In this document: piece after piece, positions 5,354 through 22,159 of the stretch
How positions within the stretch are numbered: the first letter of the stretch is position 1
How the letters are laid out: each line of letters opens with the position of its first letter
IMG/VR virus record: IMGVR_UViG_2690316161_000007
Direction: 5' to 3' (one strand)
Length of the DNA: 23,485 bases
Source: a virus
Lineage: Duplodnaviria > Heunggongvirae > Uroviricota > Caudoviricetes
Made by a program: the position numbers and the translations under genes
The notes under the pieces: model-generated
The model's input: the letters and a program-made list of their open reading frames with translations, nothing else
Told to the model about the DNA's origin: nothing
Database searches by the model: none

Positions 5354-5423
5354 GTGGCACCACTTGACTGGCGCGGGCTGGTGCGTTCGTCGGTGGCCTG
5401 ATAACCGAGTTATCACAATCACT

Positions 5424-5442
5424 GCCCGAAAGGGCTTTTTTT
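5424..5442 (+). terminator. Putative weak intrinsic terminator/attenuator after capsid gene
   Basis: GCCC-GAAA-GGGC hairpin followed by a 7-T run (5436-5442). A second GC-rich hairpin (CAGCCCC-ACA-GGGGCTG, 5455-5471) follows without a T-run. Confidence 0.35.
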
Positions 5443-5488
5443 ATGCCTGAAAAACAGCCCCACAGGGGCTGTCCGGAGAAACAGCATT

Positions 5489-6089: not shown

Positions 6090-6091
6090 GT

Positions 6092-6715: not shown

Positions 6716-6727
6716 CAGGGAGGGTGT

Positions 6728-7126
6728 ATGAAACACCGTGAAATACGGACGGCAGTTCTGTCTGCCCTGAAAGACAATATTTCTGAGCGGGTGAGCTGGT
6801 TTGACGGCCGCCCGGTTTTTATTGATGAACAGGAACTGCCTGCTGTTGCTGTTTACCTGACTGATGCGTCTGCTGCTGACGAGTTCGTTGATGAGGGGAC
6901 CTGGGAGGCGACACTGCATATTGAAGTTTTTCTCAGGGCAAAAGAACCGGACTCGGCACTGGATATGTGGATGGAAGAGAAAATCCTTCCTGCGCTGGAG
7001 GCGGTTCCCGGCCTCAGTGCGTTACTGCTGAAGATGAATCTTCAGGGGTATGACTACCGCCGGGATGATGAGTTTATGATGTGGGGATCGGCAGATCTCC
7101 TGTGGAAAATTACCTACGAGATGTGA
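6728..7126 (+). CDS. U: Minor tail protein U (tail terminator)
   Basis: 132 aa product ([14 protein letters not shown] ... LHIEVFL ... GYDYRRDD ... ITYEM) closely matches lambda gpU as recalled; GGGAGGG RBS upstream. Confidence 0.9.
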
Positions 7127-7133
7127 GGACGAT

Positions 7134-7880
7134 ATGGCAATACCAAATCCTCTTGAGCCGGTGAAAGGTTCCGGCACCACACTATGGGTGTACACCGGCA
7201 AGGATGATGCTTATGCCAACCCGTTGTCAGATGATGACTGGCAGCGACTGGCTAAGGTGAAGGATCTGACGCCGGGCGAGATGACGGCAGAATCCTACGA
7301 TGATAACTACCTGGATGATGAAGACGCGGACTGGAGCGCGACCGGGCAGGGACAGAAATCTGCAGGTGATACCAGTTTTACACTGGCCTGGAAACCGGGA
7401 GAGGAAGGCCAGAAAGGGCTTATAGGCTGGTTTGAAAGCGGCGATGTCCGGGCCTATAAAATCCGTTTTCCGAATGGCACGGTGGATGTGTTTCGTGGCT
7501 GGGTCAGCAGTATCGGTAAGGCCGTGACGGCGAAAGAAGTGATCACCCGCACGGTGAAAGTCACTAACGTGGGTAAACCTTCTGTAGCGGAAGAACGCAG
7601 CAAAATTACGCCGGTCACTGCGATTAAGGTAACGCCGACAGGTACGGTTGAAAAAGGGAAAACAACCACCCTGACCGTTACTGTGGAACCGGAAAATGCA
7701 ACGGATAAGACATTCAGGGCGATTTCCGCCGATCCATCAAAAGCCACCATTAGCGTGAAAGATATGACGATTACTGTGACGGGGGTTAAGGATGGAAAAG
7801 TCAGCATCCCTGTGATTTCCGGTAATGGTCAGTTTGCTGCGGTGGCTGAAATTACCGTTAATAATGTGCCGGGTGGCTAA
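7134..7880 (+). CDS. V: Major tail protein V with C-terminal Ig-like domain
   Basis: 248 aa product ([12 protein letters not shown] ... [41 protein letters not shown]) is near-identical in long stretches to lambda gpV as recalled; C-terminal ~90 aa is Ig-like. Confidence 0.92.
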
Positions 7881-7898: not shown

Positions 7899-8330
7899 AT
7901 GTTCCTGAAAACAGAACAATTTGAATATAACGGTGTATCCGTCACGCTTTCTGAGCTGTCTGCGCTGCAGCGTATTGAGCATCTTGCCCTCCTGAAACGG
8001 CGGGCAGAAGAGGCTGAAGCCAGCGGCAACCTGCAGGTGAGTGTGGAAGATCTTGTCAGAACCGGCGCGTTTCTGGTGGCGATGTCCCTGTGGCATAACC
8101 ATCCACAGAAAACGCAGTCACCGTCAATGAATGAGGCCGTGATGAAGATAGAGCAGGAAGTGCTCACCACCTGGCCTGCCGATGCCATTGCCCGGGCGGA
8201 AGACGTGGTGTTGTGCCTGTCCGGGATGATCGAAGCTGTTCGTCCGGATACTGATATTACTGAAGTGGCGAAAAATAACACGCTGACTGATGATGATTTT
8301 TCTGCGGGAAAGTCTTCGACGGTGAGCTGA
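7899..8330 (+). CDS. G: Tail assembly chaperone G
   Basis: 143 aa product (MFLKTEQFEYNGVSVTLSELSALQRIEHLAL ...) matches lambda gpG as recalled and ends just after a GGGAAAG slippery heptamer. Confidence 0.88.
   Translation: MFLKTEQFEYNGVSVTLSELSALQRIEHLALLKRRAEEAEASGNLQVSVEDLVRTGAFLVAMSLWHNHPQKTQSPSMNEAVMKIEQEVLTTWPADAIARAEDVVLCLSGMIEAVRPDTDITEVAKNNTLTDDDFSAGKSSTVS
8306..8312 (+). promoter_or_regulatory. Programmed -1 ribosomal frameshift slippery site (G GGA AAG) for G-T fusion
   Basis: Heptamer GGGAAAG sits in the G frame as G-GGA-AAG. The -1 frame is open from here into the T ORF (8357-8761, same frame as 8306), as in lambda G/GT. Confidence 0.8.
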
Positions 8331-8761
8331 ACTTTGCCCTCAGACTGGCGCGTGAGATGGGGAGACCCGACTGGCGCGCCATGCTTGCCGGGATGACATC
8401 CACCGAATATGCCGACTGGCACCGTTTTTACCGCACGCATTATTTTCAGGATACCCAGCTGGATATGCATTTTTCCGGGCTGACGTACGCTGTACTCAGC
8501 CTGTTTTTTTGCGATCCGGATATGCATCCCTCTGATTTCAGTCTGCTGGCACCCCGACGTGATGATGAGCAGACGGAGATGCCGGATGAGGACGATATGC
8601 TGATGCGGAAAGCGGCAGGTCTTTCTGGTGGTGTCCGCTTTGGGGCTGACGGGAAGGAAATCGTTATGGTCAGTGATGACATGCGGAGCAGTACAGAGGA
8701 TGAAGCCATGCTGATGATGGTGTCTGAGGGAATTCCAGGAGGTGTACGCTATGGCGGGTAA
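8306..8761 (+). CDS. T: T segment of the G-T tail assembly chaperone (made only as G-T fusion via -1 frameshift)
   Basis: -1 frame relative to G, open from the slippery site through 8761. Product (MGRPDWRAMLAGMTSTEYADW ...) is in the lambda T position. Confidence 0.8.
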   Translation, partial: GKVFDGELNFALRLAREMGRPDWRAMLAGMTSTEYADWHRFYRTHYFQDTQLDMHFSGLTYAVLSLFFCDPDMHPSDFSLLAPRRDDEQTEMPDEDDMLMRKAAGLSGGVRFGADGKEIVMVSDDMRSSTEDEAMLMMVSEGIPGGVRYGG

Positions 8762-11270
8762 TTTTGCCGATCTGACAGCTGTTCTTACACTGGATTCAAC
8801 CCGTTTTTCTGAAGAGGCTGCACGGGTAAAGAAAGAACTGGGTGAAGCCAGTGACCTTGCGGATTTGATGGCCGTGCGTGTCAGCCAGTCTTTTAAGAAA
8901 CAGGCCGCTGCTGTTGAGCAGGGGCTGAGCCGTCAGGCGCTGGCTGCACAAAAAGCCGGGATTTCCGTCGGGCAGTATAAAGCGGCCATGCGTACGCTAC
9001 CCATGCAGTTCACCGACGTGACCACGCAGCTTGCCGGTGGTCAGAATCCCTGGCTAATTCTGCTGCAACAGGGCGGGCAGATTAAGGACTCGTTCGGTGG
9101 GATGATCCCCATGTTCCGGGGACTGGCTGGGGCCGTCTCGCTGCCTGCTGTCGGAATTGGTGCGCTTGCTGCTGCCACGGGGGTGCTGGCGTATGCCTGG
9201 TACCGGGGCGACGCCACGCTTTCAGAATTTAATAAAACGCTGGTTCTTTCCGGTAATCAGTCCGGACTGACTGCCGATCGCATGCTGACGCTCTCCAGAG
9301 CCGGACAGGCCGCGGGGCTGACGTTTAACCAGGCGAGAGAGTCACTGGCAGCCATGGTGAATGCCGGTGTGCGTGGTGGTGAACAGTTTGATGCCATCAA
9401 CCAGAGTGTCGCGCGTTTTGCTTCTGCATCCGACGTGGAGGTGGACAAGGTTGCAGAGGCTTTCGGAAAACTGACCACTGACCCGACGTCGGGGCTGATT
9501 GCGATGGCGAAGCTGTTCCATAACGTGACGGCAGAGCAGATTGCGTATGTTGCACAGTTACAGCGTTCCGGTGATGAGGCCGGGGCATTGCAGGCGGCGA
9601 ACGATATTGCCACGAAAGGCTTTGATGAGCAGACCCGTCGCCTGAAAGAAAACATGGGGACGCTGGAGACCTGGGCGGATAAAACAGGGAAGGCGTTCAA
9701 ATCGATGTGGGATGCCATCCTGGATATCGGTCGTCCGGAATCCTCAGCGGATATGCTCGCCAGTGCGCAGAAGGCATTTGATGAGGCGGATAAAAAATGG
9801 CAGTGGTACCAGAGCCGGAGCCAGCGCCGCGGTAAAACCTCCTCTTTCCGGGCCAACCTTCAGGGCGCATGGGATGACCGGGAAAATGCCCGTCTGGGTC
9901 TGGCAGCGGCAACGCTGCAGTCGGATATGGAAAAAGCCGGTGAACTGGCGGCAAGGGACAGGGCTGAGCGTGAGTCGTCACAGCTGAAGTATACCGGAGA
10001 GGCGCAGAAGGCGTATGAGCGCCTGCTGACGCCACTGGAGAAATATACCGCCCGGCAGGAAGAGCTGAATAGGGCCCTGAAAGACGGAAAAATCCTGCAG
10101 GCGGATTACAACACGCTGATGGCGTCGGCAAAAAAGGATTATGAATCGACGCAGAAAAAGCCGTCAGGTGTGAAGGTGTCTGCCGGTGAGCGCCAGGAAG
10201 ACCGGGCGCATGCAGCCATGCTGTCGCTTGAAACTGAGCTCAGGACGCTGGAGAAGCACAGCGGTGCGAATGAAAAAATCAGCCAGCAGCGCCGGGATTT
10301 ATGGAAAGCGGAAAATCAGTATGTGGTCCTGAAAGAGGCCGCCACGAAACGGCAGTTATCTGAGCAGGAAAAATCCCTGCTGGCTCATGAGAAAGAGACG
10401 CTGGAGTACAAACGCCAGCTGGCTGAGCTGGGCGACAAGGTTGAACACCAGAAACGGCTGAATGAGCTGGCACAGCAGGCGGCGCGGTTTGAACAGCAGC
10501 AGAGTGCGAAGCAGGCGGCAATCAGCGCAAAAGCCCGCGGACTCACCGACCGTCAGGCGCAGCGGGAGTCGGAAGAGCAGCGCCTTCGTGAGGTGTACGG
10601 TGATAATCCGGATGCGCTGGCGAAGGCCACATCTGCACTGAAGAACACCTGGTCTGCGGAGGAGCAGCTTCGTGGAAGCTGGATGGCCGGTCTGAAGTCC
10701 GGCTGGGGCGAGTGGGCAGAAAGTGCGACGGACAGTTTTTCGCAGGTTAAAAGCGTGGCCACGCAGACCTTTGACGGTATTGCACAGAATATGGCAGCGA
10801 TGCTGACCGGCAGTGAGCAGAACTGGCGCAGCTTCACCCGTTCCGTGCTGTCCATGATGACAGAAATTCTGCTTAAGCAGGCAATGGTGGGGATTGTCGG
10901 GAGTATCGGAACCGGAGGATTTACGGGAACCGGCGGCAAATATGAGCCAGCGGGGATTGTTCACCGTGGTGAGTTTGTCTTCACGAAGGAGGCAACCAGC
11001 CGGATTGGCGTGGGGAATCTTTACCGGCTTATGCGCGGCTATGCCACCGGCGGTTATGTCGGTACACCGGGCAGTCTGGCGGACAGCCGGTCGCAGGCGT
11101 CCGGGAAGTTTGAGCAGAATAACCATGTGGTGATTAACAACGACGGCACGAACGGGCAGATTGGACCACAGGCGCTGAAGGCTGTGTATGACATGGCCCG
11201 CAAGGGTGCCCGTGATGAAATTCAGGCACAGATGCGTGATGGTGGCTTGTTCTCCGGAGGTGGACGATGA
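8751..11270 (+). CDS. H: Tail tape measure protein H, copy 1 (variant N-terminus, lacks Gly/Ala-rich segment)
   Basis: ~840 aa product with long coiled-coil-like Gln/Ala/Glu-rich regions and a lambda-like C-terminal domain (GKYEPAGIVHRGEFVFTKEATSRIGVGNLYRLMRGYATGGYVG). ATG 8751 is 8 nt after AGGAGG (8737-8742); stop overlaps M start. Confidence 0.9.
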   Translation: MAGNFADLTAVLTLDSTRFSEEAARVKKELGEASDLADLMAVRVSQSFKKQAAAVEQGLSRQALAAQKAGISVGQYKAAMRTLPMQFTDVTTQLAGGQNPWLILLQQGGQIKDSFGGMIPMFRGLAGAVSLPAVGIGALAAATGVLAYAWYRGDATLSEFNKTLVLSGNQSGLTADRMLTLSRAGQAAGLTFNQARESLAAMVNAGVRGGEQFDAINQSVARFASASDVEVDKVAEAFGKLTTDPTSGLIAMAKLFHNVTAEQIAYVAQLQRSGDEAGALQAANDIATKGFDEQTRRLKENMGTLETWADKTGKAFKSMWDAILDIGRPESSADMLASAQKAFDEADKKWQWYQSRSQRRGKTSSFRANLQGAWDDRENARLGLAAATLQSDMEKAGELAARDRAERESSQLKYTGEAQKAYERLLTPLEKYTARQEELNRALKDGKILQADYNTLMASAKKDYESTQKKPSGVKVSAGERQEDRAHAAMLSLETELRTLEKHSGANEKISQQRRDLWKAENQYVVLKEAATKRQLSEQEKSLLAHEKETLEYKRQLAELGDKVEHQKRLNELAQQAARFEQQQSAKQAAISAKARGLTDRQAQRESEEQRLREVYGDNPDALAKATSALKNTWSAEEQLRGSWMAGLKSGWGEWAESATDSFSQVKSVATQTFDGIAQNMAAMLTGSEQNWRSFTRSVLSMMTEILLKQAMVGIVGSIGTGGFTGTGGKYEPAGIVHRGEFVFTKEATSRIGVGNLYRLMRGYATGGYVGTPGSLADSRSQASGKFEQNNHVVINNDGTNGQIGPQALKAVYDMARKGARDEIQAQMRDGGLFSGGGR

Positions 11271-11596
11271 AAACCTTCCGCTGGAAAGTGAAACCCGGGA
11301 TGGATGTGACATCGGCTCCTTCCGTCAGGGAGGTGCGCTTTGGTGATGGCTATTCCCAGCGTGCGCCTGCCGGGCTGAATGCTGACCTGAAAACGTACAG
11401 CGTGACGCTTTCTGTCTCCCGCGAGGAGGCCAGGGCGCTGGAGTCGTTTCTGGCTGAGCACGGGGGCTGGAAAGCCTTTCTGTGGACGCCGCCTTATGGC
11501 TGGCGGCAGATCAGGGTGACCTGCGCAAAATGGACATCGCGGGTCAGTATGTTACGTGTTGAGTTCAGCGCAGAGTTTGAACAGGTGGTGAACTGA
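11267..11596 (+). CDS. M: Minor tail protein M, copy 1
   Basis: 109 aa product (MKTFRWKVKPGMDVTSAPSVREVRFGDGYSQRAPAGLNADLKTYSVTLSV ...) is lambda gpM-like; ATGA overlap with H stop and with the next ORF's start. Confidence 0.88.
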   Translation: MKTFRWKVKPGMDVTSAPSVREVRFGDGYSQRAPAGLNADLKTYSVTLSVSREEARALESFLAEHGGWKAFLWTPPYGWRQIRVTCAKWTSRVSMLRVEFSAEFEQVVN

Positions 11597-12222
11597 TGCA
11601 GGATATCCGGCAGGAAACACTGAATGAATGCACCCGTGCGGAGCAGTCGGCCAGCGTGGTGCTCTGGGAAATCGACCTGACAGAGGTCGGTGGAGAACGT
11701 TATTTTTTCTGTAATGAGCAGAACGAAAAAGGTGAGCCGGTCACCTGGCAGGGGCGACAGTATCAGCCGTATCCCATTCAGGGGAGCGGTTTTGAACTGA
11801 ATGGCAAAGGCACCAGTACGCGCCCCACGCTGACGGTTTCTAACCTGTACGGTATGGTCACCGGGATGGCGGAAGATATGCAGAGTCTGGTCGGCGGAAC
11901 GGTGGTCCGGCGTAAGGTTTACGCCCGTTTTCTGGATGCGGTGAACTTCGTCAACGGAAACAGTTACGCCGATCCGGAGCAGGAGGTGATCAGCCGCTGG
12001 CGCATCGAGCAGTGCAGCGAACTGAGCGCAGTGATGCAGATTGAGCAGGAAGTCCTGACCACCTGGCCTGCTGATGCCATTGCCCGGGCGGAAGATGTGG
12101 TGTTGCGTCTGTCCGGGATGAGCGGGCCTGTTCATGTGGATACGGATATTACCGAAGTGGCGAAAAATAACGCGCTGACTGATGATGATTTTTCTGCGGG
12201 AAAGTCTTCGACGGCGAGCTGA
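11596..12222 (+). CDS. Chimeric ORF: minor tail protein L residues 1-146 fused in frame to the C-terminal 62 aa of G (duplication junction product)
   Basis: First 146 aa are almost identical to the first 146 aa of the full-length L at 15548-16246. After SELSAV the sequence switches to MQIEQEVLTTWPADAIARAEDVV ... FSAGKSSTAS, which matches G residues 82-143 (8142-8330). Confidence 0.75.
   Translation: MQDIRQETLNECTRAEQSASVVLWEIDLTEVGGERYFFCNEQNEKGEPVTWQGRQYQPYPIQGSGFELNGKGTSTRPTLTVSNLYGMVTGMAEDMQSLVGGTVVRRKVYARFLDAVNFVNGNSYADPEQEVISRWRIEQCSELSAVMQIEQEVLTTWPADAIARAEDVVLRLSGMSGPVHVDTDITEVAKNNALTDDDFSAGKSSTAS
12198..12204 (+). promoter_or_regulatory. Second copy of the GGGAAAG -1 frameshift slippery site (in the chimeric L::G ORF)
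   Basis: Same heptamer in the same frame relationship; the -1 frame is open from here into the second T ORF (12249-12662). Confidence 0.7.
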
Positions 12223-12662
12223 ATTTTGCCCTCAGACTGGCGCGTGAGATGGGGAGGCCTGACTGGCGCGCCATGCTTGCCGGGATGACATCCACCGAAT
12301 ATGCCGACTGGCGACATTTTTACCGCATGCATTATTTTCACGATACCCAGCTGGATATGCATTTTTCCGGGCTGACGTACGCTGTACTCAGCCTGTTTTT
12401 TTGCGATCCGGATATGCATCCCTCTGATTTCAGTCTGCTTGTCCCCCGGCATGAGGAAGAGCAGGTGGAGAGGCCGGATGAGGACAAAATGCTGATGCAG
12501 AAAGCGGCAGGACTTGCCGGAGGCGTCCGGTTCGGTGGGGACGGAGGGCGCGATATTTTATCGTCTGCGGATGTGGCTGATGTCATGGTGGATGATGCCG
12601 CATTAATGATGGCTTCAGCGGGGATTTCCGGAGGTGTGAGATATGTCCCAGCCGGTTGGTGA
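12198..12662 (+). CDS. T: T segment, copy 2 (reachable by -1 frameshift from the chimeric L::G ORF)
   Basis: Paralogous to 8306-8761, nearly identical in the N-terminal ~60 aa and divergent at the C-terminus; stop overlaps start of H copy 2. Confidence 0.75.
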   Translation, partial: GKVFDGELNFALRLAREMGRPDWRAMLAGMTSTEYADWRHFYRMHYFHDTQLDMHFSGLTYAVLSLFFCDPDMHPSDFSLLVPRHEEEQVERPDEDKMLMQKAAGLAGGVRFGGDGGRDILSSADVADVMVDDAALMMASAGISGGVRYVPAGW

Positions 12663-15222
12663 TCTTGTTATTGACCTTAGTCTGGATGCGGTCCGTTTCG
12701 ATGAGCAGATGAGCCGGGTAAGGCGTCATTTTTCAGGTCTGGATACCGACGCCAGAAAAACCGCCAGTGCTGTTGAACAGGGCCTGAGCCGCCAGGCGCT
12801 GGCTGCACAAAAAGCCGGGATTTCCGTCGGGCAGTATAAAGCGGCCATGCGAACCCTGCCCGCACAGTTTACGGATATCGCCACGCAGCTTGCCGGTGGT
12901 CAGAATCCCTGGCTGATCCTGCTGCAACAGGGCGGTCAGGTGAAGGACTCCTTCGGCGGGATGATCCCCATGTTCAGGGGGCTTGCCGGTGCGATCACCC
13001 TGCCGATGGTCGGGGTCACCTCGCTGGCGGTGGCGACAGGTGCGCTGGCGTACGCCTGGTACCAGGGGGATTCCACGCTTTCAGCGTTTAATAAAACCCT
13101 GGTTCTTTCCGGTAATCAGTCCGGACTGACTGCCGATCGCATGCTGACGCTCTCCAGAGCCGGACAGGCCGCAGGGCTGACGTTTAACCAGGCGAGTGAG
13201 TCACTGGCAGCCCTGGTGAATGCCGGTGTGCGTGGTGGTGAACAGTTTGATGCCATCAACCAGAGTGTCGCGCGTTTTGCTTCTGCATCCGGTGTGGAGG
13301 TGGACAAGGTTGCAGAGGCTTTCGGAAAACTGACCACCGACCCGACGTCGGGGCTGATGGCGATGGCGCGCCAGTTCCGTAACGTGACGGCAGAGCAGAT
13401 TGCGTATGTTGCGCAGCTGCAGCGTTCCGGTGATGAGGCCGGGGCCTTACAGGCGGCGAACGATATCGCCACGAAAGGCTTTGATGAGCAGACCCGTCGC
13501 CTGAAAGAAAACATGGGGACACTGGAGACCTGGGCGGATAAAACCGGGAAGGCATTCAAATCGATGTGGGATGCCATTCTGGATATCGGTCGTCCTGAGT
13601 CCTCAGCGGATATGCTCGCCAGTGCGCAGAAGGCATTTGATGAGGCGGATAAAAAATGGCAGTGGTACCAGAGCCGGAGCCAGCGCCGCGGTAAAACCTC
13701 TTCTTTCCGGGCCAACCTTCAGGGCGCATGGAATGACCGGGAAAATGCCCGGCTGGGGCTGGCAGCGGCCACGCTGCAGTCGGATATGGAAAAAGCCGGT
13801 GAACTGGCCGCCAGGGACCGGGCCGAACGGGACGCATCACAGCTGAAGTATACCGGAGAGGCGCAGAAGGGGTATGAGCGTCTGCTGACGTCGCTGGAGA
13901 AATATACCGCCCGTCAGGAAGAACTGAATAAGGCCCTGAAAGACGGGAAAATCCTGCAGGCGGATTACAACACGCTGATGGCGGCGGCGAAAAAGGATTA
14001 TGAATCGACGCTGAAAAAGCCGAAGTCGTCAGGAGTCAAAGTGTCAGCCGGTGAGCGTCAGGAAGACCAGGCGCATGCTGCCCTGCTGGCGCTTGAAACC
14101 GAGCTCCGGACGCTGGAAAAACACAGCGGTGCGAATGAGAAAATCAGCCAGCAGCGTCGCGATTTATGGAAAGCGGAAAATCAGTATGCGGTCCGGAAAG
14201 AGGCAGCCACGAAACGGCAGTTATCTGAGCAGGAAAAATCCCTGCTGACCCATGAGAAAGAGACGCTGGAGTACAAACGCCAGCTGGCTGAGCTGGGAGA
14301 CAAAGTTGAACACCAGAAACGGCTGAATGAGCTGGCACAGCAGGCTGCGCGGTTTGAGCAGCAGCAGGGCGCGAAGCAGGCGGCAATCAGTGCCCAGGCG
14401 CGGGGCCTCACCGACCGTCAGGCGCAGCGGGAGTCGGAAGAGCAGCACCTTCGTGACGTGTACGGTGATAATCCGGATGCGCTGGCGAAGGCCACATCTG
14501 CACTGAAGAACACCTGGTCTGCGGAGGAGCAGCTTCGTGGAAGCTGGATGGCCGGGATGAAGTCCGGCTGGGGTGAGTGGGCGGAAAGTGCGACGGACAG
14601 TTTTTCGCAGGTAAAAAGCGTGGCCACGCAGACCTTTGACGGTATTGCACAGAATATGGCAGCGATGCTGACCGGCAGTGAGCAGAACTGGCGCAGCTTC
14701 ACCCGTTCCGTGCTGTCCATGATGACAGAAATTCTGCTTAAGCAGGCAATGGTGGGGATTGTCGGGAGTATCGGTAGCGCCATTGGCGGGGCTGTTGGTG
14801 GCGGCGCATCCGCATCAGGCGGTACAGCCATTCAGGCAGCTGCGGCGAAATTCCATTTTGCAACCGGAGGATTTACGGGAACCGGCGGCAAATATGAGCC
14901 AGCGGGAATTGTTCACCGCGGTGAATTCGTCTTCACGAAGGAGGCAACCAGACGGATTGGCGTGGGGAATCTCTACCGGCTGATGCGCGGCTATGCCACC
15001 GGCGGTTATGTCGGTACACCGGGCAGCATGGCGGACAGCCGGTCGCAGGCGTCCGGGACGTTTGAGCAGAATAACCATGTGGTGATTAACAACGACGGCA
15101 CGAACGGTCAGATAGGGCCACAGGCACTGAAGGCTGTTTATGACGTAGCCCGTAAGGCGGCAATGGATGTTGTGACCGGGCAGATGCGCGATGGTGGTCT
15201 GTTCTCCGGAGGTGGACGATGA
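12643..15222 (+). CDS. H: Tail tape measure protein H, copy 2 (lambda-like full version)
   Basis: 859 aa product whose N-terminus (MSQPVGDLVIDLSLDAVRFDEQMSRVRRHFSG) and Gly/Ala-rich segment (SAIGGAVGGGASASGGTAIQAAAAKFHFATGG) match lambda gpH as recalled. ATG 12643 is 8 nt after GGAGG. Confidence 0.9.
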   Translation: MSQPVGDLVIDLSLDAVRFDEQMSRVRRHFSGLDTDARKTASAVEQGLSRQALAAQKAGISVGQYKAAMRTLPAQFTDIATQLAGGQNPWLILLQQGGQVKDSFGGMIPMFRGLAGAITLPMVGVTSLAVATGALAYAWYQGDSTLSAFNKTLVLSGNQSGLTADRMLTLSRAGQAAGLTFNQASESLAALVNAGVRGGEQFDAINQSVARFASASGVEVDKVAEAFGKLTTDPTSGLMAMARQFRNVTAEQIAYVAQLQRSGDEAGALQAANDIATKGFDEQTRRLKENMGTLETWADKTGKAFKSMWDAILDIGRPESSADMLASAQKAFDEADKKWQWYQSRSQRRGKTSSFRANLQGAWNDRENARLGLAAATLQSDMEKAGELAARDRAERDASQLKYTGEAQKGYERLLTSLEKYTARQEELNKALKDGKILQADYNTLMAAAKKDYESTLKKPKSSGVKVSAGERQEDQAHAALLALETELRTLEKHSGANEKISQQRRDLWKAENQYAVRKEAATKRQLSEQEKSLLTHEKETLEYKRQLAELGDKVEHQKRLNELAQQAARFEQQQGAKQAAISAQARGLTDRQAQRESEEQHLRDVYGDNPDALAKATSALKNTWSAEEQLRGSWMAGMKSGWGEWAESATDSFSQVKSVATQTFDGIAQNMAAMLTGSEQNWRSFTRSVLSMMTEILLKQAMVGIVGSIGSAIGGAVGGGASASGGTAIQAAAAKFHFATGGFTGTGGKYEPAGIVHRGEFVFTKEATRRIGVGNLYRLMRGYATGGYVGTPGSMADSRSQASGTFEQNNHVVINNDGTNGQIGPQALKAVYDVARKAAMDVVTGQMRDGGLFSGGGR

Positions 15223-15548
15223 AAACCTTCCGCTGGAAAGTGAAACCCGGTATGGATGTGGCTTCTGCCCCTTCCGTAAGAAAGGTGCGCTTTGGTGATG
15301 GCTATTCCCAGCGAGCGCCTGCCGGGCTGAACACTGACCTGAAAACGTACAGCGTGACGCTTTCTGTTCCCCGTTGGGAGGCCGCGGCGCTGGAGTCGTT
15401 TCTGGCTGAGCACGGGGGCTGGAAGGCCTTTCTGTGGACGCCGCCTTATGGCTACCGGCAGATAAAGGTGACCTGCGCAAAATGGTCGTCGCGGGTCAGT
15501 ATGCTGCGTGTTGAGTTCAGCGCAGAGTTTGAACAGGTGGTGAACTGA
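15219..15548 (+). CDS. M: Minor tail protein M, copy 2
   Basis: 109 aa paralog of 11267-11596 with a few substitutions; ATGA overlaps with flanking genes. Confidence 0.88.
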   Translation: MKTFRWKVKPGMDVASAPSVRKVRFGDGYSQRAPAGLNTDLKTYSVTLSVPRWEAAALESFLAEHGGWKAFLWTPPYGYRQIKVTCAKWSSRVSMLRVEFSAEFEQVVN

Positions 15549-16246
15549 TGCAGGATATCCGACAGGAAACACTGAATGAATGCACCCGTGCGGAGCAGTC
15601 TGCCAGCGTGGTGCTCTGGGAAATCGACCTGACAGAGGTCGGTGGAGAACGTTATTTTTTCTGTAATGAGCAGAACGAAAAAGGTGAGCCGGTCACCTGG
15701 CAGGGGCGACAGTATCAGCCGTATCCCATTCAGGGGAGTGGTTTTGAACTGAATGGCAAAGGCACCAGTACGCGCCCCACGCTGACGGTTTCTAACCTGT
15801 ACGGTATGGTCACCGGCATGGCGGAAGATATGCAGAGTCTGGTCGGCGGAACGGTGGTCAGGCGTAAGGTTTACGCCCGTTTTCTGGATGCGGTGAATTT
15901 CGTCAACGGAAACAGCGACGCCGATCCGGAGCAGGAGGTGATCAGCCGCTGGCGCATCGAGCAGTGCAGCGAACTGAGCGCGGTCAGTGCCTCCTTTGTA
16001 CTGTCCACGCCGACGGAAACGGACGGCGCTGTTTTTCCGGGACGTATCATGCTGGCCAACACCTGCACCTGGACCTATCGCGGCGATGAGTGCGGTTATC
16101 ACGGTCCGGCGGTCGCGGATGAATATGACCAGCCAACGTCCGATATCACGAAGGATAAATGCAGCAAATGCCTGAGCGGTTGTAAGTTTCGCAATAACGT
16201 CGGCAACTTTGGCGGCTTCCTTTCCATTAACAAACTTTCGCAGTAA
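15548..16246 (+). CDS. L: Minor tail protein L, full length
   Basis: 232 aa product; C-terminal region contains the Cys-rich segment (CTWTYRGDECGYHG ... KCSKCLSGCKF) expected for lambda gpL-type proteins. Confidence 0.9.
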   Translation: MQDIRQETLNECTRAEQSASVVLWEIDLTEVGGERYFFCNEQNEKGEPVTWQGRQYQPYPIQGSGFELNGKGTSTRPTLTVSNLYGMVTGMAEDMQSLVGGTVVRRKVYARFLDAVNFVNGNSDADPEQEVISRWRIEQCSELSAVSASFVLSTPTETDGAVFPGRIMLANTCTWTYRGDECGYHGPAVADEYDQPTSDITKDKCSKCLSGCKFRNNVGNFGGFLSINKLSQ

Positions 16247-16251
16247 ATCCC

Positions 16252-16995
16252 ATGACAGAGACAGAATCAGCGATTCTGGCGCACGCCCGGCGATGTGCGC
16301 CAGCGGAGTCGTGCGGCTTCGTGGTGAGAACGCCGGAGGGGGAAAGCTATTTTCCCGGCGTGAATATTTCCGGTGAGCCGGAGGATTATTTCCGGATGGC
16401 TCCGGAGGACTGGCTGCAGGCAGAGATGCAGGGTGAGATTGTGGCGCTGGTCCACAGCCACCCCGGTGGTCTGCCCTGGCTGAGTGAGGCTGACCGGCGG
16501 CTACAGGTGCAGAGCGATTTGCCGTGGTGGCTGGTCTGCCGGGGGGCGATTCACAAGTTCCGCTGTGTGCCGCATCTCACCGGGCGGCGCTTTGAGTACG
16601 GGGTGACGGACTGTTACACACTGTTCCGGGATGCTTACCATCTGGCGGGGATTGAGATGCCGGACTTTCATCGTGAGGATGACTGGTGGCGTCACGGTCA
16701 GAATCTCTATCTGGATAATCTGGAGGCAACGGGGCTGTATCAGGTGCCGTTGTCAGCGGCGCAGCCGGGCGATGTGCTGCTGTGCTGCTTTGGTTCATCG
16801 GTGCCGAATCATGCCGCTATTTACTGTGGTGATGGCGAGCTGCTGCACCATATTCCTGAACAACTGAGCAAACGAGAGAGGTATACCGACAAATGGCAGC
16901 GACGCACACACTCCCTCTGGCGTCACCGGGCATGGCACGCATCTGCCTTTACGGGGATTTGCAACGATTTGGCCGCCGCATCGACCTTCGTGTGA
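16252..16995 (+). CDS. K: Tail tip assembly protein K (JAB/MPN metalloprotease plus NlpC/P60-like domain)
   Basis: 247 aa product with a JAMM-like motif (ALVHSHPGGLPWLSEAD) and near-identity to lambda gpK as recalled. Confidence 0.9.
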   Translation: MTETESAILAHARRCAPAESCGFVVRTPEGESYFPGVNISGEPEDYFRMAPEDWLQAEMQGEIVALVHSHPGGLPWLSEADRRLQVQSDLPWWLVCRGAIHKFRCVPHLTGRRFEYGVTDCYTLFRDAYHLAGIEMPDFHREDDWWRHGQNLYLDNLEATGLYQVPLSAAQPGDVLLCCFGSSVPNHAAIYCGDGELLHHIPEQLSKRERYTDKWQRRTHSLWRHRAWHASAFTGICNDLAAASTFV

Positions 16996-17534
16996 AAACG
17001 GGGGCTGAAGCCATCCGGGCACTGGCCACACAGCTCCCGGCGTTTCGTCAGAAACTGAGCGATGGCTGGTATCAGGTACGGATTGCCGGGCGGGATGCAG
17101 GAGAAACCGAATTATCATCCCGTCTTAATGAGCCGCTGGCAAATGGTGCCGTGATCCACATCGTGCCGCGTCTTGCGGGAGCAAAAAGTGGCGGTGTGTT
17201 TCAGGCGGTGCTGGGTGCGGCGTTGATTGCTACGGCAATCTGGATGCCGGGGATCAGTATCGCTTTCAGTGACATTCTCTTTTCAATGGGTGCGGCGATG
17301 ACGCTTGGTGGTGTGGCGCAGATGCTGGCACCGAAAGCCAGAACTCCCCGTACACAGACAACGGATAACGGCAAACAGAACACCTATTTCTCCTCACTGG
17401 ATAACATGGTTGCCCAGGGCAATGTCCTGCCTGTTCTGTACGGTGAAATGCGCGTGGGGTCACGTGTGGCATCTCAGGAGATCAGCACGGCAGATGAAGG
17501 GGATGGTGGTCAGGTTGTGGTAATTGGGCGGTAA
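16893..17534 (+). CDS. I: Tail tip assembly protein I
   Basis: Product begins MAATHTLPLASPGMARICLYGDLQRFGRRIDLRV and ends QVVVIGR, matching lambda gpI as recalled; 5' end overlaps K as in lambda. Confidence 0.88.
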   Translation: MAATHTLPLASPGMARICLYGDLQRFGRRIDLRVKTGAEAIRALATQLPAFRQKLSDGWYQVRIAGRDAGETELSSRLNEPLANGAVIHIVPRLAGAKSGGVFQAVLGAALIATAIWMPGISIAFSDILFSMGAAMTLGGVAQMLAPKARTPRTQTTDNGKQNTYFSSLDNMVAQGNVLPVLYGEMRVGSRVASQEISTADEGDGGQVVVIGR

Positions 17535-17540
17535 TATTAT

Positions 17541-17580
17541 TTTACTCATGTTCTAACTGATTTAATATTTATATCGAACA
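17541..17580 (+). promoter_or_regulatory. Putative sigma70-like promoter region for the lipoprotein moron
   Basis: AT-rich intergenic DNA with a -35-like TTTACT (17541-17546) and a -10-like TAATAT (17563-17568) 16 nt apart. Sequence-pattern guess only. Confidence 0.3.
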
Positions 17581-17607
17581 CTGATAATTATTCTATTGGT
17601 TAGCTAT

Positions 17608-17946
17608 ATGAACAAAACGATTTTATTCTGCACGATTATTGCCTTAACAGGATGTAAATCTTTGGATTACGTAAAATCCGGAAAACCTGTAATGGAAGGT
17701 AATTCATTAAAAAATATTGATGAATTGTCAGGCTGCATATCCAGACAATGGGCTGGTAATGGAACACCTATAACATCCCTTCCTATTGAGAATGGGGTAA
17801 GCCTTTTAGTTCCACAGGCTATGGGGGGATATGATGTTGTGCTTGATATCAAAAAAGCAGGAAATGGCAGTAGTTTTACTCTTTATGAACGTGTACCAGC
17901 ATTAACGCCAAAAATTTTTGCTGATAGTGTTAATGCATGTAAATAA
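17608..17946 (+). CDS. Small secreted lipoprotein encoded by a moron between I and J
   Basis: Product starts MNKTILFCTIIALTGCKS: hydrophobic signal peptide plus lipobox L-T-G-C, with Lys at +2 of the mature protein. The gene lies in a strongly AT-rich island unlike the flanking tail genes and is followed by an intrinsic terminator. ORF track opens at TTG 17596; ATG 17608 is preferred. Confidence 0.7.
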   Translation: MNKTILFCTIIALTGCKSLDYVKSGKPVMEGNSLKNIDELSGCISRQWAGNGTPITSLPIENGVSLLVPQAMGGYDVVLDIKKAGNGSSFTLYERVPALTPKIFADSVNACK

Positions 17947-17970
17947 TAGTTAATCCTGTCGTAACTCATG

Positions 17971-17998
17971 AGCCGCCTTTTGGGCGGCTTTGTTGTTT
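17971..17998 (+). terminator. Rho-independent terminator after the lipoprotein moron
   Basis: AGCCGCC-TTTTG-GGCGGCT hairpin followed by TTGTTGTTT. Confidence 0.7.
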
Positions 17999-18012
17999 AT
18001 GGAGTGTGAGGA

Positions 18013-21000
18013 ATGGGTAAAGGAAGCAGTAAGGGGCATACCCCGCGCGAAGCGAGGGACAACCTGAAGTCCACGCAGCTGCTGAGTGTGATCGATGCCA
18101 TCAGCGAAGGGCCGGTTGAAGGTCCGGTGGACGGATTAAAAAGCGTGCTGCTGAACAGTACGCCGGTGCTGGACAGTGAGGGGAATACCAATATATCCGG
18201 TGTCACGGTGGTGTTCCGGGCAGGTGAGCAGGAGCAGACACCGCCGGAGGGATTTGAATCCTCCGGCTCCGAGACGGTGCTGGGTACGGAAGTGAAATAT
18301 GACACGCCGATCACCCGGACCATCACGTCGGCAAACATCGACCGTCTGCGCTTTACCTTCGGTGTGCAGGCACTGGTGGAAACCACCTCAAAGGGGGACC
18401 GGAATCCGTCGGAAGTCCGCCTGCTGGTTCAGATACAGCGTAACGGTGGCTGGGTGACGGAAAAAGACATCACCATTAAGGGCAAAACCACCTCGCAGTA
18501 TCTGGCCTCGGTGGTGGTGGATAACCTGCCGCCGCGCCCGTTTAATATCCGGATGCGCAGGATGACGCCTGACAGCACCACAGACCAGCTGCAGAACAAA
18601 ACGCTCTGGTCGTCATACACCGAAATCATCGATGTGAAACAGGGCTACCCGAACACGGCACTGGTCGGCGTGCAGGTGGACTCGGAGCAGTTCGGCAGCC
18701 AGCAGGTGAGCCGTAATTATCATCTGCGCGGGCGTATTCTGCAGGTGCCGTCGAATTATAACCCGCAGACGCGGCAATACAGCGGTATCTGGGACGGAAC
18801 GTTTAAACCGGCATACAGCAACAACATGGCCTGGTGTCTGTGGGATATGCTGACCCATCCACGCTACGGCATGGGGAAACGTCTTGGTGCGGCGGATGTG
18901 GACAAATGGGCGCTGTATGTCATCGGCCAGTACTGCGACCAGTCAGTGCCGGATGGCTTTGGCGGCACGGAGCCGCGCATTACCTGTAATGCGTACCTGA
19001 CCACACAGCGCAAGGCGTGGGATGTGCTCAGTGATTTCTGCTCGGCGATGCGCTGTATGCCGGTATGGAACGGGCAGACGCTGACGTTCGTGCAGGACCG
19101 ACAGTCAGATAAGGTGTGGACCTATAACCGCAGTAATGTGGTGATGCCGGATGATGGTGCGCCGTTCCGCTACAGCTTCAGCGCCCTGAAGGACCGCCAT
19201 AATGCCGTTGAGGTGAACTGGATTGACCCGAACAACGGCTGGGAGACGGCGACAGAGCTTGTGGAGGATACGCAGGCCATTGCCCGTTACGGTCGTCACG
19301 TCACGAAGATGGATGCCTTTGGCTGTACCAGCCGGGGGCAGGTGCACCGCGCCGGGCTGTGGCTGATTAAAACGGAACTGCTGGAAACGCAGACCGTGGA
19401 CTTCAGCGTGGGTGCAGAAGGGCTTCGCCATGTACCGGGCGATGTCATTGAAATCTGTGATGATGACTATGCCGGTATCAGCACCGGCGGGCGCGTGCTG
19501 GCGGTGAACAGCCAGACCCGGACGCTGACGCTCGACCGTGAAATCACGCTGCCATCTTCCGGCACCACGCTGATAAGCCTGGTTGACGGAAGTGGCAATC
19601 CGGTCAGCGTGGAGGTTCAGTCCGTCACTGATGGCGTGAAGGTAAAAGTGAGCCGTGTTCCTGACGGCGTTGCCGAGTACAGCGTGTGGGGGCTGAAGCT
19701 GCCGATGCTGCGCCAGCGCCTGTTCCGCTGCGTGAGTATCCGTGAGAACGACGACGGCACGTATGCCATCACCGCCGTGCAGCATGTACCGGAAAAAGAG
19801 GCCATCGTGGATAACGGGGCGCACTTTGACGGCGACCAGAGCGGCACGGTGAATGGTGTCACGCCGCCAGCGGTGCAGCACCTGACCGCAGAAGTCACCG
19901 CAGACAGTGGGGAATATCAGGTGCTGGCGCGCTGGGACACGCCGAAGGTGGTGAAGGGCGTGAGCTTCCTGCTTCGCCTGACCGTGGCAGCGGACGATGG
20001 CAGTGAGCGGCTGGTCAGCACGGCCAGGACGACGGAAACTACATACCGCTTCACGCAACTGGCGCTGGGAAATTACAGGCTGACAGTCCGGGCGGTAAAT
20101 GCGTGGGGACAGCAGGGCGATCCGGCATCGGTATCGTTCCGGATTGCCGCACCGGCAGCACCGTCGCGGATTGAGCTGACGCCGGGCTATTTTCAGATAA
20201 CCGCCACGCCGCATTTTGCGGTTTATGATCCGACGGTACAGTTTGAGTTCTGGTTCTCGGAAAAACGGATTGCTGATATCAGGCAGGTTGAAACCAGCGC
20301 GCGTTATCTTGGTACGGCGCTGTACTGGATAGCCGCCAGTATCAATATCAAACCGGGCCATGATTATTATTTTTACGTTCGCAGTGTGAACACCGTTGGC
20401 AAATCGGCATTCGTGGAGGCTGTCGGTCGGGCGAGCGATGATGCGGAAGGTTACCTGGATTTTTTCAAAGGAGAAATCGGGAAAACACATCTGGCCCAGG
20501 AGCTGTGGACGCAGATTGATAACGGTCAGCTTGCGCCGGACCTGGCTGAAATCAGGACGTCCATTACGAATGTCAGCAATGAAATCACGCAGACCGTCAA
20601 TAAAAAACTGGAAGACCAGAGTGCGGCAATCCAGCAGATACAGAAAGTTCAGGTTGATACAAATAATAACCTGAACAGCATGTGGGCCGTGAAACTGCAG
20701 CAGATGCAGGACGGACGCCTTTATATTGCGGGTATCGGAGCCGGTATTGAGAATACGCCAGCAGGTATGCAGAGTCAGGTGCTTCTGGCTGCTGACCGGA
20801 TTGCGATGATTAATCCTGCGAATGGCAACACAAAGCCGATGTTTGTTGGTCAGGGCGATCAGATATTCATGAACGAAGTGTTCCTGAAATACCTGACGGC
20901 TCCCACCATTACCAGCGGCGGTAATCCTCCGGCATTTTCCCTGACACCGGACGGGCGGCTGACGGCGAAAAATGCCGATATCAGCGGTAACGTGAATGCG

Positions 21001-21492
21001 AACTCCGGGACGCTCAACAACGTCACGATTAACGAAAACTGTCGGGTTCTGGGAAAACTGTCCGCCAACCAGATTGAAGGCGATCTCGTTAAAACAGTGG
21101 GCAAAGCTTTCCCCCGGGACTCCCGTGCACCGGAGCGGTGGCCATCAGGGACCATTACCGTCAGGGTTTATGACGATCAGCCGTTTGACCGGCAAATTGT
21201 TATTCCGGCGGTGGCATTCAGTGGCGCTAAGCATGAGAGAGAGCATACTGATATTTACTCCTCATGCCGTCTGATAGTGCGGAAAAACGGTGCTGAAATT
21301 TATAACCGTACCGCGCTGGATAATACGCTGATTTACAGTGGTGTTATTGATATGCCTGCCGGTCACGGTCACATGACGCTGGAGTTTTCGGTGTCAGCAT
21401 GGCTGGTAAATAACTGGTATCCCACAGCAAGTATCAGCGATTTGCTGGTTGTGGTGATGAAGAAAGCCACCGCAGGCATCAGTATCAGCTGA
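18013..21492 (+). CDS. J: Tail tip / host specificity protein J
   Basis: 1159 aa product beginning [34 protein letters not shown], near-identical to lambda gpJ as recalled over roughly the first 800 aa; the C-terminal ~340 aa diverge. GGAG RBS upstream. Confidence 0.95.
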
Positions 21493-21559: not shown

Positions 21560-22159
21560 ATGCGTAAAGTTTGTGCAGCCATTTTGTCCGCAGCCATCTG
21601 TCTGTCCGTATCCGGTGCGCCTGCATGGGCGTCTGAACATCAGTCCACACTGAGCGCGGGGTATCTTCATGCCCGTACGAACGCTCCCGGCAGCGATAAT
21701 CTGAACGGGATTAACGTGAAATACCGTTATGAGTTTACGGACGCGCTGGGGCTGATTACGTCCTTCAGTTATGCCAATGCTGAGGATGAGCAAAAAACGC
21801 ACTACAGCGATACCCGCTGGCATGAAGATTCCGTGCGTAACCGCTGGTTCAGCGTGATGGCGGGGCCGTCTGTGCGCGTGAATGAATGGTTCAGCGCGTA
21901 TGCGATGGTGGGTGTGGCTTACAGCCGTGTGTCGACTTTCTCCGGGGATTATCTCCGCGTAACTGACAACAAGGGGAAAACGCACGATGTGCTGACCGGA
22001 AGTGATGACGGTCGCCACAGCAACACGTCTCTGGCGTGGGGGGCTGGCGTGCAGTTTAACCCGACCGAATCCGTGACCATTGACCTTGCTTATGAAGGTT
22101 CCGGTAGTGGCGACTGGCGAACGGATGCATTTATTGTTGGTATCGGATACCGTTTCTGA
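21560..22159 (+). CDS. lom: Outer membrane protein Lom (Ail/Lom family beta-barrel), lysogenic-conversion moron
   Basis: 199 aa product with signal peptide (MRKVCAAILSAAICLSVSGAPAWA) and C-terminal GIGYRF; near-identical to lambda Lom as recalled. Flanked by terminators on both sides. Confidence 0.92.
   Translation: MRKVCAAILSAAICLSVSGAPAWASEHQSTLSAGYLHARTNAPGSDNLNGINVKYRYEFTDALGLITSFSYANAEDEQKTHYSDTRWHEDSVRNRWFSVMAGPSVRVNEWFSAYAMVGVAYSRVSTFSGDYLRVTDNKGKTHDVLTGSDDGRHSNTSLAWGAGVQFNPTESVTIDLAYEGSGSGDWRTDAFIVGIGYRF

Follow-up and report, generated by a model that had tools for sequence, protein, structure and literature searches.

A 432-bp stretch of foreign DNA is inserted in the lambda-type late (tail) operon of the window (the whole 23,485-nucleotide stretch of viral DNA that was analysed), between the stop codon of gene I and lambda's hairpin upstream of J, and it carries an intact gene for a predicted prolipoprotein of the PHROG 914 family. 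As to what this protein does, we favour, tentatively and with somewhat less than even confidence, phage exclusion at the level of the envelope, independent of the receptor-binding domain, as its most likely role.

The gap from the stop of I to the start of J measures 478 bp and is the sole AT-rich island in the whole 23.5 kb: the insert has a GC content of 0.338 versus 0.563 for the remaining window, the lowest value in any other 432-bp segment is 0.468, and the GC3 of the lipoprotein ORF is 0.24 versus 0.58-0.68 for K, I and J. The initial annotation had described about 480 bp of AT-rich DNA at this place and had stated that lambda has no gene there, and both statements are correct, as the lambda I-J spacer is 60 bp long and contains no gene. 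An I stretch identical to that of the window is annotated as 'tail assembly protein' in NZ_CP066032, and the 3' end of I matches gene I of lambda-like phages at approx. 94%. When the I-J junction was compared among relatives, as had been proposed together with these observations, the insert was missing from lambda, from mEp460 and from every one of the 103 lambda-like phage records with matches to both flanks, whereas 337 of the 5426 complete genomes of E. coli carry it (approx. 6%, with 95-100% identity). An 8-bp direct repeat, TTGGGCGG, occurs at both cassette edges; since such a repeat is at chance level in the 611-bp region, it was not taken as a target duplication. The coordinates of all features are collected in Table 1.

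Table 1. Features of the I-J region and its surroundings, with positions in the window and the basis of each assignment.
Feature	Position	Strand	Basis or remark
Tail-tip assembly gene I, left flank	16893..17534	+	213-aa ORF
Foreign AT-rich cassette, from the I stop codon to the resident I-J hairpin	17535..17966	+	GC; absence from relatives
AT-rich leader, 73 nt, GC 0.22, weak promoter-like hexamers only	17535..17607	+	Sigma-70 scan
Gene for 112-aa prolipoprotein, PHROG 914	17608..17946	+	ORF; full-length phrog_914 match
Predicted signal peptide ending in lipobox L13-T14-G15-C16	17608..17655 (lipobox 17644-17655)	+	Sequence reading
Codon of Cys43, family-invariant	17734..17736	+	120-sequence alignment A2
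Codon of Cys111, penultimate residue, family-invariant	17938..17940	+	120-sequence alignment A2
Intrinsic-terminator-like hairpin and T-run	17970..18000	+	Scan hit, fold, homologues in lambda and mEp460
Tail-tip/host-specificity gene J, right flank	18013..21492	+	83% identical to lambda J overall
Lom/Ail-family gene	21560-22159		Same operon, 3.6 kb downstream of the lipoprotein gene

Upstream of the ORF, promoter-like sequence had been noted, and it is weak: the sigma-70 scan of the + strand at a threshold of 9/12 gives no site. A relaxed scan gives four candidates at 8/12, of which TTTACT-17-AATATT (17541-17569) and TTTAAT-16-GATAAT (17561-17588) look most plausible, but matches of this quality are expected by chance in DNA of GC 0.22. 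The leader occurs in five variants among 58 copies, with few positions differing. Threshold promoters are likewise missing from three other contexts of the family, so that four contexts in all are without one, and in loci where the gene lies between K and I the spacer from K is only approx. 32 bp, with no room for a promoter.

Downstream of the ORF, the hairpin at 17970-17990 has a 9-bp stem with 6 G-C pairs and is followed by TGTTGTTTAT, and the 69-nt stretch that contains it (17944-18012) folds at -21 kcal/mol minimum free energy (z = -2.4). A strong intrinsic terminator before J had been described as part of the acquired DNA. The terminator is there, but it is not cargo, since the short I-J spacers of lambda and mEp460, both without the insert, contain a homologous hairpin with its T-run; it is the resident lambda I-J element, which now closes the cassette on its 3' side. 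A terminator-like hairpin also follows the gene in each other context of the family. An Rfam GcvB match that spans the hairpin together with the 3' half of the ORF reached 19.6 bits, below the gathering score of 42, and was treated as chance. The earlier proposal of a classic moron architecture is thus partly upheld: the gene is missing between the same neighbours in relatives, its composition is unlike that of the flanking genes and a factor-independent terminator lies downstream (via the resident hairpin), while a promoter of its own was not found at the scan threshold. Presence or absence among near-identical lambda-type tails, together with the foreign composition and the downstream terminator, supports the view that the lipoprotein gene is a horizontally acquired accessory gene within the tail operon.

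The ORF is intact from its ATG to the stop codon at 17944-17946; the ORF lister starts it from an upstream TTG at 17596, which would give 116 aa. The N-terminus, MNKTILFCTIIALTG followed by CKS, has a charged n-region with Lys, a hydrophobic core and a lipobox that fits [LVI][ASTVI][GAS]C, so the 112-aa lipoprotein with an LTGC lipobox and Lys at +2, as originally described, stands, with a mature length of 97 aa and not approx. 95. Asp at +2 is the Lol-avoidance signal, and the E. coli +2 rule underlies the prediction of sorting; here the +2 residue is Lys and the +3 residue Ser, while the residues at +2 in the 141 family sequences listed include K, A, S, T, G, V and E, and Asp was not seen there. 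It follows, in agreement with the outer-membrane sorting proposed initially, that Cys16 is predicted to be lipidated and the protein to be exported and Lol-sorted to the outer membrane. Cys16, Cys43 and Cys111 are the only invariant columns in the 120-member alignment, and we infer that a family-invariant Cys43-Cys111 disulfide locks the mature domain, which would place this domain in the oxidising periplasm.

The AlphaFold model, which is confident (pLDDT 83.7, pTM 0.76), suggests that the 97-aa mature protein is a compact alpha/beta domain. The closest fold match of the model is Flpp3 (DUF3568) of Francisella, whose entry title calls it a virulence determinant; both Flpp3 and the BamC N-terminal domain are only 6-10% identical in sequence to the window protein, and the Pfam model of DUF3568 gives no match to any of 120 family members. 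Since unrelated folds such as KA1 and DUF302 score about the same, the similarity to Flpp3 and BamC is considered generic.

The match of the window protein to phrog_914 is full-length, with residues 1-112 aligned to positions 1-118 of the 118-position profile (E = 7.3e-33), and the family HMM built from alignment A2 finds phiKO2 gp19 at E = 7.5e-23. The Fraca homologue (VUF53278.1) is 31% identical to the window protein and shows 49% identity to phiKO2 gp19 and 44% to p54 of Serratia phage OS31; it thus links the window protein to gp19. These phage proteins, of approx. 111-113 aa, share the lipobox and the two conserved cysteines. The family comprises approx. 125 clusters at 50% identity, nearly all of 105-125 aa with a lipobox, and length, lipobox and the two cysteines are kept across genera at 20-60% identity. 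Its depositors annotated phiKO2 gp19 as 'putative moron gene product', the authors of the OS31 genome guessed a Cor-analogue role for p54 (PMC7556043), and the other database names are 'hypothetical protein'. Neither the protein alone nor profiles of 12 and 120 sequences retrieved more than signal-peptide noise in sequence searches of Pfam, NCBIfam, PADLOC and PDB (e.g., VirB7 at E = 0.08, FlgP or Llp at E = 0.2-1); with the window protein itself Pfam gave no match of any kind, and the defence models of PADLOC-DB v2 gave 0 families at E <= 1. A literature search for WP_001332187 or phrog_914 found no paper, and the gene is not discussed in the telomere-phage paper. The family is one without a Pfam entry and without a solved structure.

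A scan of the genome contigs gave a single locus. The gene lies between I and J in E. coli, between K and I in Klebsiella, Kluyvera, phiKO2, Fraca and LMessi, and between the tail chaperone and the tape-measure gene in four loci of L069-type prophages; relatives in tail operons are found in Klebsiella, Enterobacter, Kluyvera and Serratia prophages and in telomere phages. In phiKO2, OS31 and Fraca the gene is co-oriented in a lambda-like tail-tip cluster and followed by a terminator, as in the window, although there it sits between K and I and not between I and J, and the K, I and J N-terminus of the window are close to those of lambda. The K/I and I/J junctions behave as insertion hot spots. 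One further copy (L094) is remote from tail genes and located downstream of a putative repressor gene, divergent from a Cro/CII/AntA operon, while other relatives are in plain chromosomal contexts, such as between a yidB-like gene and ecotin in Shimwellia blattae, or on a high-GC contig, which suggests that the ancestral function may have been a host envelope role unrelated to phage.

The E. coli carriers include diverse pathotypes and commensals, among them the O104:H4 lineage and the type strain of the species. The cassette is found at 349 places in E. coli versus 8553 places for the 3' end of a lambda-type I, and a search of 50,697 records of isolated phages did not find the E. coli allele. 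IS elements have disrupted at least one carrier prophage (IS66 in L001). The gene is kept intact by purifying selection, with 58 of 61 copies (95%) intact and three frameshifted, and with 11 synonymous and 6 nonsynonymous variants among the 58 intact copies.

Residues 1-820 of the window J are near-identical to lambda, while the last 250 aa are only 56% identical, and the C-terminal 249 aa are 99% identical to the J of VT1-Sakai and PPompW. Copies of the lipoprotein gene that are at least 98% identical pair with four C-terminal types of J, which are 55-83% identical to each other, and the J N-termini beside them are 96-98% identical; the same J end is also present in phages without the gene. 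The gene is associated with the conserved backbone of the lambda-type tail tip (K, I and the J N-terminus), and not with any one receptor-binding end of J, which argues against a blocker of the phage's own receptor in the style of Cor or Llp. This uncoupling, opposite to the Cor/Llp pattern, and the lack of the E. coli allele in isolated-phage records are both points against an exclusion role, as are the disrupted carrier prophage, the relatives in chromosomal contexts, the empty result with the PADLOC models and the want of a promoter at the scan threshold.

Several known systems offer models for such a protein. Cor/Llp genes adjoin the receptor-binding determinant, match the phage's own receptor and encode the classical exclusion lipoproteins. 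Like the window protein, Cor and T5 Llp are small phage outer-membrane lipoproteins encoded in or near tail or receptor-binding genes and are a plausible functional model, although they differ from it in size and predicted fold, and the window gene, unlike theirs, lies 3.5 kb upstream of the receptor-binding end of J. It is extremely improbable that the gene is a divergent true member of the Cor-type (FhuA-inactivating) or Llp-type family. Such a membership would agree with the place of the gene in the tail module of a siphophage, with the small size of its outer-membrane lipoprotein and with an hhalign hit to Cor at a probability of 93%, but it is contradicted at the family level. Cor-type homology (phi80, N15, HK022, T1), which had initially been left as a possibility, was tested by profile-profile alignment and rejected, as the match to Fraca Cor covers profile columns 5-36 only, that is, the signal peptide with its lipobox and a short tether, with a few residues past the lipidated Cys. 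Position differs as well, since Cor-type genes are located downstream of J and the tail-fibre genes, whereas the gene here is upstream of J and its relatives are found at the K-I junction or ahead of the tape-measure gene; in Fraca, a cor gene is annotated separately, downstream of J. T5 Llp (PDB 8a60 chain B) has no sequence or fold similarity to the window protein beyond the signal peptide.

The absence of resemblance to Bor, as first reported, was confirmed: hhalign with lambda Bor aligns 19 columns, the signal peptide only. Bor and Lom are, likewise, prophage outer-membrane proteins regarded as morons, but Bor sits by the lysis genes, and Lom (here encoded just downstream of J) is a beta-barrel and not a lipoprotein. 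With mEp010 Lpp010 hhalign aligns 17 columns, again of the signal peptide only, so homology was rejected there too. Lpp021 and Lpp010 of the mEpimmI phages exclude phages when expressed from plasmids, and Lpp010 excludes lambda (PMC11893012). Both are lipoproteins encoded in the structural gene cluster, as here, although Lpp010, of 82 aa, is encoded immediately downstream of J in the opposite orientation, and its sequence is unrelated to that of the window protein. The Tai tail-assembly-interference systems were also considered and set aside, as nothing in the outline of the paper (PMC11364771) ties the phi80 genes in question, orf63 and orf64, to a tail-module lipoprotein.

A different model is provided by the accessory gene in the tail operon of HK97, whose slot between the tail chaperone and the tape-measure gene is the one occupied by the L069-type homologue. 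HK97 gp15 is a small inner-membrane protein that causes superinfection exclusion at the DNA-entry step. Unlike the window protein it is not a lipoprotein, and it serves as a model for exclusion independent of the receptor-binding domain.

In the lytic cycle the gene would be transcribed with the tail genes, by Q-antiterminated polymerase reading through the hairpin, while in the lysogen any transcript from the AT-rich leader would stop at the hairpin. With no promoter at the scan threshold and so short a K-X spacer (X being the lipoprotein gene) in the K-I loci, its expression may be confined to the late phase of lytic growth. In the favoured reading, the lipoprotein would act at the envelope and protect the lysogen, or the progeny of the lysing cell, from phage, and would thus be a superinfection-exclusion or 'lytic conversion' factor. 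The likely target would be a post-receptor step common to lambda-type tail tips (periplasm crossing, channel formation) or, alternatively, a receptor used by other phages, the phage's own receptor being less likely; the association with the backbone, together with relatives in the HK97 gp15 slot and beside a repressor, points to targets of these two kinds. A bolder proposal, which we consider unlikely, is that the family constitutes a class of phage-encoded outer-membrane lipoproteins not recognised so far, which would exclude lambda-type siphophages once these have adsorbed, by acting in the periplasm on a conserved part of the tail-tip or tape-measure penetration machinery and not on the receptor. 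Such a post-adsorption target would account for the association of the gene with the K-I-J backbone in different genera despite the free exchange of receptor-binding ends.

It is possible, if on the unlikely side, that the gene is instead a lysogenic-conversion factor for the host, which changes a property of the envelope (serum or complement resistance, adhesion, stress tolerance, permeability) in a manner like Bor or Lom, to which it is unrelated. The Lom/Ail-family gene in the same operon, the diversity of pathotype and commensal carriers and the uncoupling from the J receptor-binding type fit this explanation, as do the fold match to the titled virulence determinant Flpp3 and the plain chromosomal members of the family, which imply a function in the host cell. 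However, the relationship to Bor is confined to the signal peptide, the protein belongs to no Pfam or NCBIfam family, the scan found no promoter that would be active in the lysogen, and generic cargo would have no obvious reason for a repeated tie to lambda-type tail-tip genes across genera and at three junctions.

Two other explanations keep the gene closer to the tail or deny it a function altogether. That the protein is a helper of the lytic cycle made only with the tail genes, either inactivating receptors on the dying cell as T5 Llp does, which would save progeny from being lost on debris, or aiding tail-tip assembly or release, seems to us distinctly improbable: its co-orientation with and embedding in the late operon, the short K-X spacing and the lack of a threshold promoter in four contexts are what would be expected, but phages whose tail genes are essentially the same, in some cases including the J end, are viable without the gene, so it is not needed for assembly. 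Furthermore, the gene is immediately followed by a terminator wherever it occurs, which fits an independent transcript, one member lies beside a repressor far from tail genes, and the uncoupling from the receptor-binding domain argues against blocking of the phage's own receptor. Very unlikely is the idea of a decaying or functionless hitch-hiker whose ORF is no longer used. Some carrier prophages are indeed defective, a few copies are frameshifted and the allele is missing from isolated-phage records, yet the synonymous excess, the high share of intact copies and the conservation of length, lipobox and cysteines across genera are against it.

Whatever its role, the locus indicates that the lambda I-J hairpin is a backbone feature that accessory genes may use as a terminator. 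As a host-fitness factor, the lipoprotein would be another widespread lysogenic-conversion gene. As an exclusion factor, it would be a common resistance determinant relevant to phage therapy and to the prediction of host range and, unlike with Cor and Llp, the receptor could not be read off from the phage genome. Should exclusion take place after adsorption, this would be the first lipoprotein of a lambdoid prophage shown to exclude lambda-like phages.

Between the tail genes I and J, the window carries a foreign, selectively maintained accessory lipoprotein gene (X), lying in the tail operon with a resident terminator 3' of it, and the initial annotation of this feature as a lipoprotein moron proved real and largely right. 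The I-J gap, AT-rich as that annotation had it, spans 478 bp and holds the sole AT-rich island of the 23.5 kb: the GC content of its foreign part equals 0.338, against 0.563 in the rest of the window and a minimum of 0.468 among all other 432-bp windows, and GC3 is 0.24 in the X ORF and 0.58–0.68 in K, I and J. The I-J spacer of lambda is just 60 bp and holds no gene, in line with that annotation. The product has, as described, a lipoprotein signal peptide (MNKTILFCTIIALTG followed by CKS) with lipobox L-T-G-C and Lys at +2; the mature protein measures 97 aa (stated earlier as about 95 aa), with a computed pI of 7.9. According to the E. coli +2 rule, Lys at this position leads to outer-membrane sorting, which is what the sequence predicts for the X protein.

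Coordinates of gene X, its surroundings and the comparison loci
Sequence	Feature	Position	Strand	Detail
Window	Gene I end	17534	+	
Window	Foreign part of I-J gap	17535-17966		
Window	X ORF	ATG 17608 to stop 17944-17946	+	112 aa
Window	Rfam GcvB match	17773-17998		3' half of ORF plus hairpin
Window	Hairpin plus T-run	17970-18000		9-bp stem, 6 G-C pairs; scan and fold
Window	Gene J start	18013	+	
Window	J receptor-binding end	20700-21492		
Window	Tandem copies	8309-12029; 12201-15981		
Window	First L copy	11596-12222		
Window	L'::'G junction	near 12019-12030		
L001, E. coli FDAARGOS_1059	Carrier prophage	1-27000		
L002, Fraca	Unrelated lipoprotein ORF	5725-5994		
L003, LMessi	Unrelated lipoprotein ORF	5647-5994		
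L067	Cargo block between K and I	2063-6911		4.8 kb
L067	Family lipoprotein	5971-6312		
L067	Second lipoprotein	6406-6855		149 aa
L083, Shimwellia blattae (CP001560)	Chromosomal member	7001-7339		
L090, VT1-Sakai (AP000400)	I-J spacer	2037-2278		240 bp
L094	Repressor-adjacent region	5108-6360		

The terminator before J had been counted as part of the cargo; it is present, but lambda and mEp460, both without the insert, have a homologous hairpin and T-run in their short I-J spacer (lambda GAAACCGCCTGCGGGCGGTTTTGTCATTTATGGAGCGTGAGGAATG, window GAGCCGCCTTTTGGGCGGCTTTGTTGTTTATGGAGTGTGAGGAATG, with equal fold energies). The cargo thus entered 3' of the I stop codon, ahead of a hairpin already resident there; this terminator, a lambda backbone element outside the imported DNA, now closes the new gene. 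A terminator-like hairpin lies directly 3' of the gene in every phage context examined. Upstream of X, a consensus scan of the + strand found no sigma-70-type promoter; a relaxed scan gave the promoter-like sequence noted before, as four 8/12 candidates (most plausibly TTTACT-17-AATATT and TTTAAT-16-GATAAT), but such matches mean little because the leader is so AT-rich (GC 0.22). The proposed moron architecture is thus supported apart from its promoter, and with its terminator re-attributed. The GcvB match (19.6 bits, below the gathering score of 42; E = 0.07) was dismissed as chance.

Searches with the X protein in Pfam, NCBIfam, PADLOC and PDB returned no match, and the single clear match was the function-unassigned family PHROG 914 (full length, E = 7e-33). 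Homologues at 50–62% identity occur in Klebsiella, Enterobacter, Kluyvera and Jejubacter, and an exhaustive profile search gave 125 clusters at 50% identity, nearly all of 105–125 aa with a lipobox; X belongs to a large, unnamed lipoprotein family. In the alignment of 120 sequences only the lipidated Cys16, Cys43 and Cys111 are invariant, from which we infer a disulfide, fitting a periplasmic location. None of these 120 members matches a Pfam family, and wherever a source database names a member, the name is "hypothetical protein". The depositors of phiKO2 annotated its member, gp19, as "putative moron gene product". For Serratia phage OS31, whose p54 is 44% identical to the member of phage Fraca, the authors noted the lipobox and guessed a Cor analogue from size and position (PMC7556043). 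Since the family and both ideas are already on record, X is to be seen as a phage-borne outer-membrane lipoprotein moron, not as a new kind of system.

In direct comparisons with Cor, Bor, Lpp010 of mEp010 and Llp of T5, similarity was confined to the signal peptide; this agrees with the reported unlikeness to Bor and answers in the negative the question of Cor-type homology, which had been left open. AlphaFold gave a confident model (pLDDT 83.7, pTM 0.76), with a four-to-five-stranded sheet against a long helix (carrying C43) and a C-terminal helix ending at C111. Its best structural neighbours (Brucella protein PDB 7tj1, DUF302, KA1 domains and the BamC N-terminal domain) all have 4–13% sequence identity, and the predicted fold is a generic small alpha/beta one, indicating no function.

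The E. coli allele of X (95–100% identity) was present in 337 of 5426 complete genomes, including O104:H4 and the type strain DSM 30083, always annotated as hypothetical; its 349 places, set against 8553 with a lambda-type I 3' end, mean that about 4% of such junctions are occupied. The allele was not found among 50,697 phage records, where 103 lambda-like phages match the flanks only. In the 78 loci fetched, every E. coli copy had the order I-X-J; relatives that are more distant lie elsewhere, with the order K-X-I in Klebsiella prophages, Kluyvera, phages Fraca and LMessi and the telomere phage phiKO2. In four Enterobacter-type loci a relative follows chaperone genes, directly 5' of the tape-measure gene, where HK97 has its gp15 moron. 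Another relative (L067) lies within a cargo block together with a second lipoprotein and antirepressor-like and HTH-like ORFs, and one (L094) stands immediately 3' of a putative repressor, facing a Cro-like/CII-like/AntA early operon. The latter member is divergent, with neither conserved cysteine, and is followed by a terminator; the operon has a strong promoter-like site (TTGACA-16-AATACT). The chromosomal member of Shimwellia blattae, 38% identical to the window protein, is flanked by a yidB-like gene and ecotin, copCD-yebY being close by and phage genes absent within 7 kb, an arrangement repeated in a second assembly; another member has plain chromosomal surroundings on a high-GC contig.

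VT1-Sakai has a different I-J spacer, unrelated to the window cassette, which may include an ORF of some 39 codons in its own sequence (judged by eye); J is annotated as mutation-split in that record. This spacer and the K-I cargo elsewhere suggest that the K-I and I-J junctions are insertion hot spots. In LMessi and Fraca, an unrelated lipoprotein ORF (MRKFLSILACSLIIVGC...) lies directly 5' of the family member in the K-I interval, giving two tandem lipoprotein genes within the tail-tip cluster; the annotated start of the Fraca ORF is 3' of its signal peptide. The FDAARGOS_1059 carrier prophage is broken by several IS66-family elements (terminase truncated, K interrupted, tail fibre split), with X and J still 100% identical to the window. 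In the window itself, the stretch from the G end through T, H (tape measure) and M to L occurs as two diverged tandem copies (92–94% identical). L in the first copy lacks its normal C-terminus past roughly residue 146 and continues into sequence that is gpG in annotation elsewhere; the resulting L'::'G junction, found in none of the 5426 complete E. coli genomes, reflects either unequal recombination between two lambdoid prophages, a rare event, or a chimeric assembly.

Among 58 intact E. coli copies, X has 11 synonymous and 6 nonsynonymous variant sites, and 3 of 61 copies are frameshifted; this synonymous excess with few frameshifts places X under purifying selection. In 37 loci with complete J, X copies at least 98% identical pair with four types of the receptor-binding J C-terminus (55–83% mutual identity, compared with 96–98% over the first 800 residues of J). 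Up to residue 820 the window J is nearly the same as lambda J, with identity of 56% in the last 250 residues, and its receptor-binding end is 99% identical in VT1-Sakai and PPompW phages, both without X. Since X accompanies four J ends and the same J end occurs without X, X and the receptor-binding end are independent of each other in both directions.

Q-modified polymerase reads through such terminators, so that in lytic growth X would be produced together with the tail proteins in any event; a transcript starting in the leader would stop at the hairpin. To hypothesize, the protein would sit on the periplasmic face of the outer membrane and act on phage entry, and an anti-phage role is the reading we tentatively prefer. 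Cor and Llp are precedents for phage exclusion by lipoproteins. For Lpp021 and Lpp010 exclusion was shown by experiment, with lambda among the excluded phages (PMC11893012). Besides these precedents, the anti-phage reading is favoured by the family's recurrence at classical sites of exclusion genes (the gp15 site and the repressor-adjacent one) and by its constant company with lambda-type tail-tip genes in different genera. Cor and Llp block the phage's own receptor, whereas X pairs with four J ends; being unmatched to a receptor-binding end, it is less likely to act in their way, and a conserved post-adsorption step or the receptor of other phages is the more likely target.

A conversion factor serving host fitness, to which the chromosomal homologues and the neighbouring Lom point, is rather unlikely, and a helper produced solely in the lytic cycle is improbable, though the K-X spacers of 32 bp and the missing promoter favour it. 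That X is junk is very improbable given the selection on it, and true membership of the Cor or Llp family is scarcely credible, as the likeness ends at the signal peptide. If exclusion is shown, X would represent a new exclusion family carried by about 6% of E. coli genomes.
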